A stretch of 64,000 bases of DNA from Syntrophales bacterium (GTDB lineage Bacteria > Desulfobacterota > Syntrophia > Syntrophales > UBA6807), in the NCBI GenBank assembly GCA_040767195.1, contig JAXGPA010000004.1, positions 1 through 64,000 on the forward strand, written 5' to 3'. How positions within the stretch are numbered: position 1 is the stretch's first letter; each line of letters begins with the position of its first letter. Below the pieces are notes generated by a model that had not been told where the DNA came from, did no database searches, and was given only the letters and a program-made list of their open reading frames with translations. The position numbers and the translations under genes were made by a program. This document shows, one piece after another, positions 12,947 to 18,040 of this stretch.

Positions 12947-13423
12947 CTACCTGAGAAAAATAACGCCGGACCGGCTCAAGTCCTCGATTCCCAGGGGCGT
13001 AAGCCCCTTCAGGACCCAGTCGATCTCCTCGAGGGTGCCGGTGACCTCGAGAATACAGTGATCCGGCTCCATCCGAAGGGTCCGGCAGTGAAAATTCTCG
13101 ATATCTTTCTTAATCTTTTCCCGGTTTTCCTCCCGGAAGGGGATCCGGACGAGGACCATTTCCCTGAGAATGGTCCTGTCGTTCCCGGCGATGTTGAATT
13201 CCAGCACATCGACGAGTTTCCGGAGCTGTTTTTCGATCTTGCTCACCGTGGCCGTGTTTCCCTTCGTCACCAGGGTGATCTTGGTCATGTCCGGGTTGAG
13301 GGTCACGTTGGCGCTGATGGATTCGATATTGAAGCCCCTGCCGCTGAAGATCCCGGCGATCCGGGCCAGCACGTCGGGCTTGTTGTTCACCAGAAGGGTC
13401 ATCTTGTGTTCTTTGATTTCCAT
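12947..13423 (-). CDS. ilvN: acetolactate synthase small (regulatory) subunit, copy 1, with Asp at the Gly14-equivalent site
   Basis: ACT domain NNKPDVLARIAGIFSGRGFNIESI, KQLRKLVDV, REMVLV, SRSG. Confidence 0.9.
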   Translation of the reverse strand: MEIKEHKMTLLVNNKPDVLARIAGIFSGRGFNIESISANVTLNPDMTKITLVTKGNTATVSKIEKQLRKLVDVLEFNIAGNDRTILREMVLVRIPFREENREKIKKDIENFHCRTLRMEPDHCILEVTGTLEEIDWVLKGLTPLGIEDLSRSGVIFLR

Positions 13424-13440: not shown

Positions 13441-15144
13441 CTATCCTTTTTTACGTCCCAGGTCCATCTCCGTCAGGGAGGCACCGGGCCCCACCATGGG
13501 GTAGACCCCCTCCTCGGGGTCGACGGCCATGTCCATGAAGACCGGCCCCGGGGTTTCGAGCCCCTGTTTCAGGACCGCTTCCATCTCCTCCGGCCGGGTC
13601 GCCCGGAGCCCCGTGGCCCCGTAGGCCTGGGCGAGTTTCACGAAATCGGGGACCTGGCTGATGTTCGTGTGGGAATACCGCCGCCCGTAGAAGATCTCCT
13701 GCCATTGCCGGACCATGCCGAGGAACCCGTTGTTCAGGATGACGACCTTCACGGGAATGTTGTAGTTCACCACCGTGGCCAGCTCCTGGATGTTCATCTG
13801 GATGCTCCCGTCGCCGGCGATGTCCAGGACCGTCCGGTCCGGGCAGGCCACCTGGGCCCCGATGGCGGCGGGAAAGCCGTACCCCATGGTCCCCAGGCCC
13901 CCCGACGTGAGAAACTGGTTGGGCCGGTTGAAACGGTAGAACTGGGCCGCCCACATCTGGTTCTGCCCCACCTCGGTGGCCACCACGGCCTCGCCGCCGG
14001 TGAGCCGGTAAAGGGTTTCGATGACGCACTGGGGCTTGATCATGTCCCCGGAATCGTAGCAGAGCGGGGCGTATTCCCGCCACTTGTCGATCTGCCCGAG
14101 CCACGCGCCCAGATCATCCGCGGACAGGACGTTCTTCTCCTGCTCGAGCATCTGGGTCAGCTGGTGGAGGGCCGTCCGGCTGTCGCTCACGATGGGGAGG
14201 TCGACGAGGACGTTCTTGTTGATCGATGCGGGGTCGATGTCGATGTGAACGATTTTCGCCTGGGTGGCGAAATCGGAAAGCCGGCCCGTCACCCGGTCGT
14301 CGAACCGGACCCCGATGGCGATGATGAGATCGGCATGGCTCACGGCCATGTTGGCGTAGTAGGTTCCGTGCATCCCCGGCATGCCGAGCCACAGGGGGTC
14401 CGTTCCCGGGTAGGCCCCCAGCCCCATGAGGGTCGAGGTGATGGGAATGCCCGTGGCCCGGACGAATGTCCGGAGCTCCTCGGAGGCCCGCCCTAAAATG
14501 ATGCCCCCGCCGGTGAGAATGACGGGGCGCTTCGCTTTCCGGAGCATTCCGACGACCTGCTGCAGGGCCTCCGTGTCGGGAAGATAGGAGGGCTCCCGAA
14601 GGCAGGCTGAAGGGATTCCCGAGGGCTCGTAGACCGCCGTGCCCTGGGCGACGTCCTTGGGAAGGTCCACCAGGACCGGGCCGGGACGGCCGCACCGGGA
14701 GAGGTAGAAAGCCTCCTTGACAGTCCTGGCGAGGTCCGCCGTCCGCCGGACGATGTAGTTGTGCTTCGTGATGGGCCGCGTGATGCCCGTGATGTCCGCC
14801 TCCTGGAAGGCGTCGGACCCGATGAGGGCCGTGGAGACCTGGCCGGTGAAGACGACGATGGGGATGGAGTCCATGTAGGCCGTGGCGATGCCCGTGACCG
14901 TGTTGGTCGCCCCGGGACCGGATGTCACCAGGCAGACCCCCGTTTTACCCGACGCCCGGGCATACCCGTCCGCCGCGTGGGTGGCCCCCTGCTCGTGGCG
15001 GACAAGGATGTGCCGGATCTCGCCCTTGTGCAGCTCGTCGTAAATATCGAGAACGACACCGCCGGGATACCCGAAAATGGTGTCCACACCTTCCTCAAGA
15101 AGGGCCTTGATGAGTATCTGCGCTCCCTTCAGTTCCACGTTCAC
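13441..15144 (-). CDS. ilvB: acetolactate synthase large subunit, copy 1 (Ile-attenuated)
   Basis: FGYPGG, RHEQGATHAADGYAR, TSGPGATN, GRPGPVLVDLPKD, RFDDRVTG, SGGLGTMG, GDGS...NNGFLGMVRQWQ; GTG start after AGGAGG. Confidence 0.95.
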   Translation of the reverse strand: MNVELKGAQILIKALLEEGVDTIFGYPGGVVLDIYDELHKGEIRHILVRHEQGATHAADGYARASGKTGVCLVTSGPGATNTVTGIATAYMDSIPIVVFTGQVSTALIGSDAFQEADITGITRPITKHNYIVRRTADLARTVKEAFYLSRCGRPGPVLVDLPKDVAQGTAVYEPSGIPSACLREPSYLPDTEALQQVVGMLRKAKRPVILTGGGIILGRASEELRTFVRATGIPITSTLMGLGAYPGTDPLWLGMPGMHGTYYANMAVSHADLIIAIGVRFDDRVTGRLSDFATQAKIVHIDIDPASINKNVLVDLPIVSDSRTALHQLTQMLEQEKNVLSADDLGAWLGQIDKWREYAPLCYDSGDMIKPQCVIETLYRLTGGEAVVATEVGQNQMWAAQFYRFNRPNQFLTSGGLGTMGYGFPAAIGAQVACPDRTVLDIAGDGSIQMNIQELATVVNYNIPVKVVILNNGFLGMVRQWQEIFYGRRYSHTNISQVPDFVKLAQAYGATGLRATRPEEMEAVLKQGLETPGPVFMDMAVDPEEGVYPMVGPGASLTEMDLGRKKG

Positions 15145-15188: not shown

Positions 15189-15220
15189 AAAAAAAAACCG
15201 CTACCCTCGGGGTAACGGTT
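15189..15220 (-). terminator. attenuator terminator upstream of ilvB copy 1
   Basis: AACCGTTACCC-CGA-GGGTAGCGGTT stem running into a 9-nt U tract. Confidence 0.88.
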
Positions 15221-15245: not shown

Positions 15246-15335
15246 CTAAACCATCACCCCGCCCCTTCTGAAGGGAATAATTATACCGATGATCGCAATT
15301 TCCAACTGCTTCGGGGATGGGGAAAACACTGCCAT
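15246..15335 (-). CDS. Ile-rich attenuator leader peptide MAVFSPSPKQLEIAIIGIIIPFRRGGVMV
   Basis: 29 aa, absent from the ORF track; 6 Ile in 8 codons; its 3' end is complementary to the 5' arm of the downstream terminator. Confidence 0.85.
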   Translation of the reverse strand: MAVFSPSPKQLEIAIIGIIIPFRRGGVMV

Positions 15336-15404: not shown

Positions 15405-15905
15405 TCAGGCCGGGCCTCCCTTCTTTTCCTTGGGCAGTGCGATGATGCCCGTTCTCGCCGCTTCGCGGATGCCCAGGTCCCGAAAATACTGGAGAAGCGT
15501 TTCCGTTTCCTCGCTCGTCCCCACGGCCTGAAAAACGGCGTAATCGTCTTTCATGAAAATCAGCTTGCCGTTGAAAAGCTCCATGGCCTTGAGAATATCG
15601 GCCCGGCGCTCCTGGGGAAAATCCAGGCCCAGGAGGGCCACTTCCCGCTGCAGGGACCGGGACGGGGCGAGTTCCTCTACCTCGATGACGTCCACGAGCC
15701 TGTCCAGCTGCTTCCGGACCTTGTCGGTGAAATTCGAGTTGGCCCGGCTCATGAGGGTGATCCGGGACGTGTCCGGGTCGAGGGTGGGCGCCACGCAGAG
15801 GCTTTCGATGTTGTAACCGAGCCTTCCGAAAATCCCGGACACCCGGGAGAGAACGCCCGGCTTGTTCTGAACGAGGAGTGACAGGATGTGTTCTTCGCCA
15901 TTCAT
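15405..15905 (-). CDS. ilvN: acetolactate synthase small (regulatory) subunit, copy 2, with the canonical Gly
   Basis: QNKPGVLSRVSGIFGRLGYNIESL, KQLDRLVDVIEV, REVALL, ARTG. Confidence 0.9.
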   Translation of the reverse strand: MNGEEHILSLLVQNKPGVLSRVSGIFGRLGYNIESLCVAPTLDPDTSRITLMSRANSNFTDKVRKQLDRLVDVIEVEELAPSRSLQREVALLGLDFPQERRADILKAMELFNGKLIFMKDDYAVFQAVGTSEETETLLQYFRDLGIREAARTGIIALPKEKKGGPA

Positions 15906-16076: not shown

Positions 16077-17753
16077 TCAGTCCGATCTCCCGTAGATCAT
16101 TTCCATGTTCGATTTTCCGGGCGGGATAATGGGATAGACATAGTCCCCGGGAGGGACCATGACTTCCAGGAGATAGGGCCCGTCACTTGCGGCGAGGCGC
16201 TCGATGGCCCCCTCGGGCTTTTCCGCCCCGACCCGCTCCGCTTCCAGGCCGAAGCCCCGGGCCACGGCGACGATGTCCGTTTTTTCCCCGAGCTGGCAGG
16301 CGCTGAGCCGGGACCCGTAAAAAAGGTCCTGGATCTGGCGGATCATCCCCAGGTGGCCATTGTTGAAGACGATGATCTTGACGGGCACCTGGTAATAGCT
16401 GATGGTGGCCAGCTCCTGGATGTTCATGAAAAACCCGCCGTCGCCGGTGAAAGACACGACGTTCCGCTTCGGGTTTCCCACCTTGGCCCCGATGGAGGCG
16501 GGAAGGCTGAAGCCCATGGTCCCCATGCCGCCGCTGGTGAGGAGCCCCCGGGGGGACTTCGATTTCCAGGACCGGACCGTCCAGATCTGGTTCAGTCCCA
16601 CGTCGGCGACGGCGATGGCCGTCGGGGACAGGGCCTCCTGGACCAGGCCGATGAGCCGCCCGGGCAGGCCGCAGCCGTTGTAGCTGTTCTTCGCCTCCAG
16701 GGACTCCCGCTCCTTCTGGATCCTGTCTTTCCAGTCGCCCCTTTCCTTTTCGTCGACGAGGCCGATGAGCCCGGAAAGGGCTTTCCGGATGTCGCAGACG
16801 AGAGCCAGGTCCGCCTTGATGTTCTTGCCGATGGACGTGGGGTCGATGTCGATCTGGGCGATCGTCGCCAGGGGAGCGAACTCCTCCACCTTGGAGGTGC
16901 TCCGGTCGGTGAAACGGGTCCCCACGGCGAGGATGAAGTCGGACTGGTGGATCATCCGGTTGGCCAGTTCGAACCCATGGGTGCCGATGAATCCCAGGTT
17001 GAGGCCGTTGGCGATGCACACGGCTCCCACGCCCATCATGGTGCTCACGAAGGGGATGTTCCCCCGTTCGATGAGTTCCGTGATGAGCTGGCAGGCACCG
17101 CTGAGCTTGACGCCCCCGCCGATGATGAGGATGGGCCTTTCCGCCTGGTTCAGGGCCTGGGCGATGCGGTTCAGGATGCCTTCGTCCAGGGCGTGGCCGT
17201 TCCCCGTCTTCTTCATGGCCGGTTCCTCCGGCCTGATTTCCGCCTCGGGGCAGCGGCCCGCCAGGACATTCCGCGGAAGGTCCACGAGGACCGGCCCCGG
17301 CCGGCCCTGCTTGGCCAGGGAAAAAGCCTGCTTGAGGGTCGTCCGCATGTCCCTGGGGTCCCGGACAAGGAAGCTGTGCTTCGTGATGGGCATGGTGATC
17401 CCGATGATGTCCGTCTCCTGGAAGGCGTCGGTCCCCAGGAGGTCCGTGGGAACCTGGCCCGTGAGGGCCACCACGGGGGAGGAGTCCATGTAGGCCGTGG
17501 CGATCCCCGTGACGAGGTTCGTCGCCCCCGGCCCCGAGGTAGCCAGGCAGACCCCCACCTTTCCCGTGGCCCGGGCGTAACCGTCGGCGGCATGGGCGGC
17601 GGCCTGCTCGTGACGCATCAGGTAATGCCGGATCGTGTGGTCGATGAGTCCGTCATGAATGGGCAGGGTATTTGCCCCGGGATAGCCGAAGATGGCGTCC
17701 ACCCCTTCTTCCTTCAACGTCTCCAGAAGGATCTGTGCACCGTTTCTTTCCAT
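16077..17753 (-). CDS. ilvB: acetolactate synthase large subunit, copy 2 (Val-attenuated)
   Basis: FGYPGA, RHEQAAAHAADGYAR, TSGPGATN, GRPGPVLVDLP, SGGMGTMG, GDGG...NNGHLGMIRQIQ; AGGAG RBS before ATG 17753. Confidence 0.94.
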   Translation of the reverse strand: MERNGAQILLETLKEEGVDAIFGYPGANTLPIHDGLIDHTIRHYLMRHEQAAAHAADGYARATGKVGVCLATSGPGATNLVTGIATAYMDSSPVVALTGQVPTDLLGTDAFQETDIIGITMPITKHSFLVRDPRDMRTTLKQAFSLAKQGRPGPVLVDLPRNVLAGRCPEAEIRPEEPAMKKTGNGHALDEGILNRIAQALNQAERPILIIGGGVKLSGACQLITELIERGNIPFVSTMMGVGAVCIANGLNLGFIGTHGFELANRMIHQSDFILAVGTRFTDRSTSKVEEFAPLATIAQIDIDPTSIGKNIKADLALVCDIRKALSGLIGLVDEKERGDWKDRIQKERESLEAKNSYNGCGLPGRLIGLVQEALSPTAIAVADVGLNQIWTVRSWKSKSPRGLLTSGGMGTMGFSLPASIGAKVGNPKRNVVSFTGDGGFFMNIQELATISYYQVPVKIIVFNNGHLGMIRQIQDLFYGSRLSACQLGEKTDIVAVARGFGLEAERVGAEKPEGAIERLAASDGPYLLEVMVPPGDYVYPIIPPGKSNMEMIYGRSD

Positions 17754-17784: not shown

Positions 17785-17820
17785 AAAAAAGCCGCATCTT
17801 TCATCGAGGTGCGGCTTTTT
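17785..17820 (-). terminator. second (distal) terminator T2 of the Val attenuator
   Basis: AAAAAGCCGCACCT-CGATGAA-AGATGCGGCTTTTTT hairpin with U tract. Confidence 0.8.
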
Positions 17821-17823
17821 CCG

Positions 17824-17860
17824 AAATAAAAAAGCCGCGGGCCTTTCGGGGCCCGCGGCT
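17824..17860 (-). terminator. attenuator terminator T1 upstream of ilvB copy 2
   Basis: 11-bp stem AGCCGCGGGCC-CCGAAA-GGCCCGCGGCT followed by TTTTTATTT. Confidence 0.9.
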
Positions 17861-17880
17861 CCTTTTCGATCTAACGTTTT

Positions 17881-17967
17881 CTAAGGCAGAGCAGCGGTCC
17901 CCGTCTTTACGACGACTACGACTACAGCCACGGCTACCGTGCTTGCCAGGGAATGTCTGTCAGCCAT
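17881..17967 (-). CDS. Val-rich attenuator leader peptide MADRHSLASTVAVAVVVVVVKTGTAALP
   Basis: 28 aa, absent from the ORF track; 8 Val codons, 6 of them consecutive; AGGTG RBS; 3' part complementary to the T1 5' arm. Confidence 0.9.
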   Translation of the reverse strand: MADRHSLASTVAVAVVVVVVKTGTAALP

Positions 17968-18040
17968 TTTCACACCTGCCGGCGTTGGGAAACCCTTTCG
18001 AGGCCTTCCCGCCTGCCTCCCGTGTAATCTTGTGAGGGAA

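Follow-up and report, generated by a model that had tools for sequence, protein, structure and literature searches.

Predicted valine and isoleucine leader attenuators before two AHAS gene pairs in a Syntrophales bacterium

The window analyzed here, a stretch of 64,000 nucleotides, carries on its minus strand the genes ilvB1-ilvN1-ilvB2-ilvN2-ilvC-ilvD, in this order, behind a short Val-rich ORF (leader 1; Table 1). A second, Ile-only candidate attenuator with its own predicted promoter (15335-15189) is located between ilvN1 and ilvB2, i.e., in front of ilvB2-ilvN2-ilvC-ilvD. A first-pass annotation of this DNA had described a 28-aa ORF with a ribosome-binding site and six consecutive Val codons, and we found this ORF, preceded by an SD-like AGGTG. 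That description is extended here by the second terminator-like hairpin (T2), the TTGACA promoter (18070), ilvB1 downstream of the leader, and the second attenuator. The promoter assigned to leader 1 (P1) is not among the sites listed by a simple promoter scan. In silico, core features of a classical attenuator are present: a short ORF, codons for the product (eight for Val, six for Ile), a terminator, and an antiterminator that excludes it.

Table 1. Features of the ilv locus in the window
Feature	Position	Strand	Details
Predicted sigma70-type promoter P1	18042..18070	-	TTGACA, 17 nt spacer, TAGTGA; -10 imperfect
SD-like AGGTG of leader 1	17973..17977	-	spacing to ATG 5 nt
Leader ORF 1, 28 aa, Val-rich	17967 (ATG) to 17881 (TAG)	-	peptide MADRHSLASTVAVAVVVVVVKTGTAALP
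Leader 1 control codons Val11, Val13, Val15-20	17908..17937	-	run Val15-20 = 17925-17908
Leader 1 antiterminator strand, Gly-Thr-Ala-Ala codons	17889..17903	-	pairs with T1 5' arm; one mismatch, always kept
Terminator T1 (predicted structure)	17824..17861	-	12-bp stem 17860-17833 and U tract; -27.4 kcal/mol
Relay helix (predicted) joining the 3' arm of T1 to the 5' arm of T2	17811..17838	-	11 bp, -16.2 kcal/mol
Second terminator-like hairpin T2	17785..17821	-	U tract
ilvB1, AHAS large subunit	16077..17753	-	Ile at the 2-ketobutyrate Trp position
ilvN1, regulatory subunit	15405..15905	-	valine-feedback Gly kept
Predicted internal promoter P2	15366..15394	-	TTGACA, 17 nt, TAGGGA
Leader ORF 2, 29 aa	15246..15335	-	six Ile codons 15299-15276; alternative GTG start 15341
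Attenuator 2 antiterminator strand	15249..15260	-	12/12 pairs with 15220-15209, two of them G-U; -19.0 kcal/mol
Attenuator 2 single terminator (predicted structure)	15189..15220	-	
ilvB2, AHAS large subunit	13441..15144	-	with Trp
ilvN2, regulatory subunit	12947..13423	-	Asp at the feedback Gly position
ilvC	12791-11739	-	
ilvD	11530-9869	-	

Several other elements were seen on the minus strand of this region. The 5' UTR of about 65 nt before the leader 1 start (18040-17975) can form hairpins, is longer than in most relatives, and in a full fold may pair with the antiterminator strand. A further promoter-like site (18186-18158; GTGACG, 17 nt, TAGAAT) follows the PBP1A gene. GC-rich palindromes lie between ilvN2 and ilvC (12930-12838) and between ilvC and ilvD (11740-11600); the former has a U tract at its end and might reduce read-through into ilvCD.

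The leader 1 peptide was said to be free of Ile and to contain two scattered Leu; indeed, Ile is absent, and Leu occurs only at positions 7 and 27. Half of the control Val codons (4/8) are GTA. The pairing that had been claimed between 17903-17889 and 17861-17847, at 13 of 15 positions, was recomputed as a Watson-Crick duplex of -24.2 kcal/mol, and 13 pairs were never obtained when the upstream 125 nt were dinucleotide-shuffled (0/3000; best, 12). Genome-wide, a loose filter for a residue run plus a terminator retained 78 of 18,166 short SD-preceded ORFs, and Val or Ile was the top residue in leader 1 and the Ile leader (15341/15335) only. A chance ORF was rejected on the basis of this filter and the shuffles. 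A T-box or riboswitch identity was also rejected, as no family reached its gathering score in an Rfam search (the best match, Thr_leader, had 22.6 of 55 bits).

To describe conservation of this layout, we used 94 unique ilvB1 loci, of which 91 have at least 250 nt of upstream sequence. Automatic picking gave a leader ORF in 77 of the 91, and visual inspection showed the other 14 to be laid out alike. When a strict antiterminator-T1-T2 pattern was applied, 81 of the 91 loci matched, the 10 misses retaining the leader and T1; 34 of 50 ilvB2 loci in genomes lacking ilvB1 matched as well. In a 115-row alignment of the pattern-matched ilvB1 and ilvB2 loci, whose rows are kin and whose stem cores are part of the search pattern, two-sided changes numbered 37 in the antiterminator helix (18.9 in shuffled alignments; 0/500), 30 in T1 (8.4) and 36 in T2 (20.9). 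The invariant mismatch of the antiterminator falls on the wobble position of an Ala codon, where T, C or A occurs and the pairing G is found in none of the 115 rows; since GCG accounts for 26% of this genome's Ala codons, we infer selection for a weak antiterminator. GTA makes up 342 of 450 Val codons in the homologous control windows, compared with 2.9% of genomic Val codons. Upstream of the leader, TTGAC is present in all 81 pattern-matched homologs, and 78 of them have an in-frame start with an SD-like 3-mer.

It had been proposed that a ribosome stalled on the Val run frees the antiterminator strand, and that one reaching the stop codon masks it. This behavior was reproduced in silico by footprint-constrained folding of RNA extended to the T1 5' arm. 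With a footprint of 7 nt, the antiterminator is predicted to form with the A site at any of codons 8-21, including Val11-Val20; with 12 nt, it forms with the A site up to Val17, and also at Val19. With either footprint, it is masked by a ribosome located anywhere from Thr22 to the stop. Footprint dependence of the antiterminator was also seen for leader 2. In the window, and likewise in 70 of 81 homologs, the complete T1 outcompetes the antiterminator at equilibrium despite the stall. The switch must therefore be kinetic, set by the order of folding. RNA contigs from four sequencing runs cover ilvB1 and the surroundings of leader 2; positions 17875-18005 are blank in three of them, which makes these contigs uninformative on termination. 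A 1:2 pause or protector hairpin is a feature of E. coli trpL. Across the 81 homologs, no such protector helix emerged as conserved. Their control region folds at -17.7 kcal/mol on average, with no gain in stability over codon-shuffled versions (mean z -0.45), and in 69 of the 81 the antiterminator forms even with no ribosome present.

An unmasked T2 would halt read-through, and T2 must also be passed. In folds of the window in which the antiterminator is held, the 3' arm of T1 pairs with the 5' arm of T2 until the T2 3' arm emerges; once this arm is present, T2 outcompetes the relay at equilibrium (P=0.98). The latter result would fit an alternative in which only T1 acts as a switch, T2 being a hairpin that is duplicated, bidirectional, or active in RNA stabilization or translation, and the relay following incidentally from sequence that the stems share. 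We regard this alternative as possible but rather unlikely. Against it stands the need to pass T2; moreover, the relay duplex averages -14.6 kcal/mol over 91 ilvB1 loci, compared with -7.2 kcal/mol for shuffled sequences, and is at or below -10 in 89 of them, although T1 was picked without T2 as a requirement. The 5' core of T2 is fixed beside an inner pair that varies freely, which argues in the same direction; invariance of the cores in this alignment (A1) is, however, partly imposed by the search pattern, and T2 is degenerate in two loci (L025 and L038). Among 45 ilv, trp, aro and leu leaders (4 further leaders failed detection), the relay dG was -13.6 for matched and -11.5 for swapped arms (0/20000). 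For the trp set alone, relay base pairs per 7 nt were 6.2 versus 6.09 for swapped arms, a non-significant difference (1569/20000) that is again consistent with T1 acting alone, as is the occurrence of one terminator in the Ile attenuator (repeated arm in 1 of 32). A further point against it comes from 39 of the 45 rows compared by eye, 6 mis-registered or divergent rows being omitted: A in T1 faces T in T2 in 22 of 23 cases, and G in T1 faces C 10 times and T 6 times, an asymmetry that wobble pairing predicts.

The arrangement that we favor, a leader followed by two terminators with a predicted relay, is found beyond ilvB1. A model of this element matched 43 of 141 genomes of the phylum, and most of 24 model loci that were inspected have a recognizable leader and two hairpins. 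The genes behind two-hairpin leaders include trpE, trpB-like, DAHP synthase, ADH synthase, leuA, leuB and ilvB. Leader codons fit the downstream pathway across these operons (Val, Ile, Trp, Phe/Tyr and Leu), and stem cores of the GCCGY type are common to different operons. When 90 trpE loci were picked without the model and judged by eye, 27 had two terminators and 13 had one, the remainder having no clear Trp leader.

Additional leaders of this kind were noted on the minus strand in the genome under study (G000). A Trp leader with two relayed terminators precedes trpE (L229, G000:C6:53590-53718), and a Tyr/Phe/Trp leader, likewise with two relayed terminators, precedes DAHP synthase (L231, G000:C6:48521-48675). 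A Phe-rich leader with two terminators (L227, G000:C7:139135-139258) is located upstream of a 408-aa protein that has no NCBIfam match at 1e-60 and, in our estimation, resembles an ABC substrate-binding protein; L227 is possibly a Phe-controlled transporter leader. In another order, three loci (L206, L207 and L211) have a two-terminator scaffold like that of leader 1. L206 and L207 precede a more distant ilvB (54% to IlvB2), and the leaders of L207 and L211 are of Val/Ile/Leu composition.

The amino acid sensed by leader 1 was examined through its control codons. With the 7-nt footprint, a ribosome anywhere on codons 8-21 frees the antiterminator, and leader 1 holds Ala8, Ala12, Ala14, Ser9, Thr10 and Leu7, so that a ribosome stalled at Ala, Thr, Ser or Leu might also allow read-through. 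Such a broader sensor is improbable, as Val (5.6 per 10 control codons) and Leu (1.9) are the only residues found consistently in the 81 homologs, compared with means of 0.4 for Ala, 0.07 for Thr and 0.56 for Ser, and as Leu content tracks leuA. The first-pass label "valine-specific" thus fits this genome, whose control window has no Leu; it does not extend to the family, in which 67 of 81 homologous windows contain Leu and which by its codons is of the Val/Leu type.

Among the genomes compared, which are kin and partly incomplete drafts in which absence of a gene is not proven, so that Fisher p-values overstate the contrast, the 10-codon window contains Leu in 52 of 63 genomes with leuA and in 2 of 27 without it (17 rows with no detected scaffold were dropped). 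The exceptions are 11 leuA-containing genomes with no Leu in the window and two genomes lacking leuA that have Leu (G112 and G119). The contrast recurs within families between near-identical sister leaders (G002 and G006 versus G003; G110 versus G018). Leaders of ilvB2 differ in a similar manner. When ilvB1 is present, Ile exceeds Val in 38 of 39 rows, including two genomes (G029 and G048) that have no real second leader and a first leader of mixed Val/Ile/Leu composition; in one genome (G055), the ilvB2 leader is Val-rich despite ilvB1. When ilvB1 was not found, Val exceeds Ile in 42 of 50 rows, with 4 rows showing the reverse and 4 ties (G090 was left out because it has too little upstream DNA). 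Within the two-terminator scaffold, Ile occurs in 24 of 34 leaders serving ilvB2 versus 17 of 56 serving ilvB1, and 7 of these 17 come from a family without leader 2. In a FastTree phylogeny of 103 IlvB2 sequences, in which some nodes are weak, lineages lacking ilvB1 are nested several times within lineages that have it, and G055 groups with a family lacking ilvB1. Judged from these sequences, it is likely that leader codons have been retuned upon pathway loss, with Leu lost in the absence of leuA and the ilvB2 leader becoming Val-rich in the absence of ilvB1.

In G000 itself, which is 98.8% complete, no leuA, cimA, leuC-type or ilvA gene was found; pathway searches gave only thrC, HMG-CoA lyase, an aconitase-length match and a 45% LeuB-like match (C1:861528). 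The genome nonetheless keeps a putatively Ile-controlled ilv operon.

We consider it very improbable that the leader is translated yet exerts no control through Val stalling, with T1 and T2 being basal or opened by a trans-acting factor: the shared GCCGY-type cores could be a protein-recognized motif, and similar ilvB leaders were unaffected by codon replacement in Streptomyces coelicolor (PMC1262725, excerpt) and unresponsive when a single Val was changed in Corynebacterium (PMC10272879, excerpt), but the codons of the present leaders match downstream pathways and track gene loss, and the rare GTA codon is used.

The two AHAS enzymes differ at the residues associated with substrate preference and feedback. 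Trp of the large subunit directs preference for 2-ketobutyrate, and AHAS I has Gln in its place (PMC5727371, excerpt). The best PDB sequence match of IlvB1 is E. coli IlvB, whose Gln aligns with Ile of IlvB1. This position is Ile, Met, Leu, Tyr or Val in IlvB1 proteins (non-Trp in all 90 covered), and IlvB2 proteins have Trp in 89 of 90. The feedback position is Gly in all 90 detected IlvN1 and Asp in all 86 detected IlvN2 proteins, with 4 undetected in each case. Outside the order, Trp is present in 24 of 27 IlvB (3 have Phe) and Gly in all 20 detected IlvN, and no convincing leader was found directly upstream of these 27 ilvB loci. Asp17 of IlvN2 aligns with a Gly of E. coli IlvH (chain residue 15 of 2f1f). 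We take this Gly to be G14 by numbering, and G14D to be a resistance allele. Changing a conserved small-subunit Gly, presumably the same residue, renders AHAS III valine-insensitive (PMC5727371, excerpt), and G20D is among resistant variants (PMC8406616, excerpt). On the strength of these single residues, we predict that IlvB1N1 serves the valine branch as an AHAS that prefers pyruvate and is inhibited by valine, and that IlvB2N2 serves the isoleucine branch, preferring 2-ketobutyrate and resisting valine. IlvB1 orthologs were detected in 57 of 121 genomes of the order and in 2 of 301 genomes of the phylum, both of them Syntrophales. Two genomes stood out in these searches: G001, of the same genus, had no AHAS match with either query although it is rated 100% complete, and G058 has two Trp-type ilvB copies (L134 and L186), both with a Val-rich leader and a single-terminator layout.

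Taken together, leader 1, its antiterminator and the two terminators probably constitute a ribosome-stalling valine attenuator of ilvB1N1, paired with an attenuator of ilvB2N2CD that probably senses isoleucine. When Val-tRNA is ample, the ribosome would cover 17903-17889, T1 would form, and transcription would end near 17828, with T2 catching transcripts that leak through T1. When valine is scarce, the ribosome would stall on codons 11-20, and the antiterminator would take the 5' arm of T1 before the 3' arm exists; the freed 3' arm could then sequester the 5' arm of T2, allowing ilvB1N1 to be transcribed. Each end product would in this way control its own enzyme, valine acting on IlvB1N1 and isoleucine on IlvB2N2. 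With less assurance, though we lean toward it, we further propose that Syntrophales have two closed loops of branched-chain amino acid control, matched in sensor codon, substrate residue and feedback residue (with a natural Gly-to-Asp valine-resistant subunit), and that leader codons have been rewritten repeatedly within lineages to list the end products still fed. If this is true, the leader is a readable record of pathway content, and valine-only control together with an Ile loop for which neither ilvA nor cimA was found would point to another source of 2-ketobutyrate in this organism.

Leader-peptide attenuation is well known, as is the E. coli Val/Leu leader in front of a non-Trp AHAS. In the his leader of Salmonella and E. 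coli, freed arms relay the decision through alternative helices; here, the predicted chain is placed behind the first terminator and would govern a second one, and an upstream protector was not found. A literature search found no paper on these leaders, although the surveys Lopatovskaya 2010 and Vitreschak 2004 may predict deltaproteobacterial ilvB attenuators; excerpts of PMC4833913, PMC2965389, PMC3082878 and PMC1183508 contain nothing on this system. Like leader 1, ivbL controls E. coli ilvBN by leader-peptide attenuation, in that case by Val and Leu (PMC8406616, excerpt), and AHAS I, like IlvB1, lacks the Trp, having Gln, and is valine-inhibited (PMC5727371, excerpt). However, IlvN1 is a 166-aa, IlvH-like protein (PRK11895 and TIGR00119 above cut-off, PRK08178 below) and not a short single-ACT IlvN, two terminators are present, and control codons are Val-only where leuA is missing; the system is not a member of the ivbL/AHAS I type. 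The ilvB2 part resembles ilvGMEDA of E. coli, in which a valine-resistant, Trp-bearing AHAS (AHAS II) heads common-pathway genes under an attenuator, ilvL (PMC8406616, excerpt). In contrast to ilvL, which senses all three amino acids, leader 2 is Ile-only in the presence of ilvB1 and Val-rich in its absence, and the predicted valine resistance of IlvB2N2 is based on Asp in a regulatory subunit of full length. The ilvB-II, ilvB-OMG and Leptospira ilvB uORF motifs also consist of uORFs rich in branched-chain codons and terminators before ilvB; their codons are mixed Ile, Leu and Val, no enzyme-matched pair of sensors is described for them in the excerpt of PMC10272879, and the present leaders have no Rfam match. 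What these data add is a Val-versus-Ile leader pair matched to the predicted specificity and feedback of two AHAS enzymes, and a natural experiment in sensor evolution, loss of leuA or ilvB1 being followed in several lineages by swaps of single codons. The system also offers single-amino-acid sensors, a candidate natural valine-resistant AHAS, and a route to reading amino acid needs of uncultured syntrophs from their leaders.
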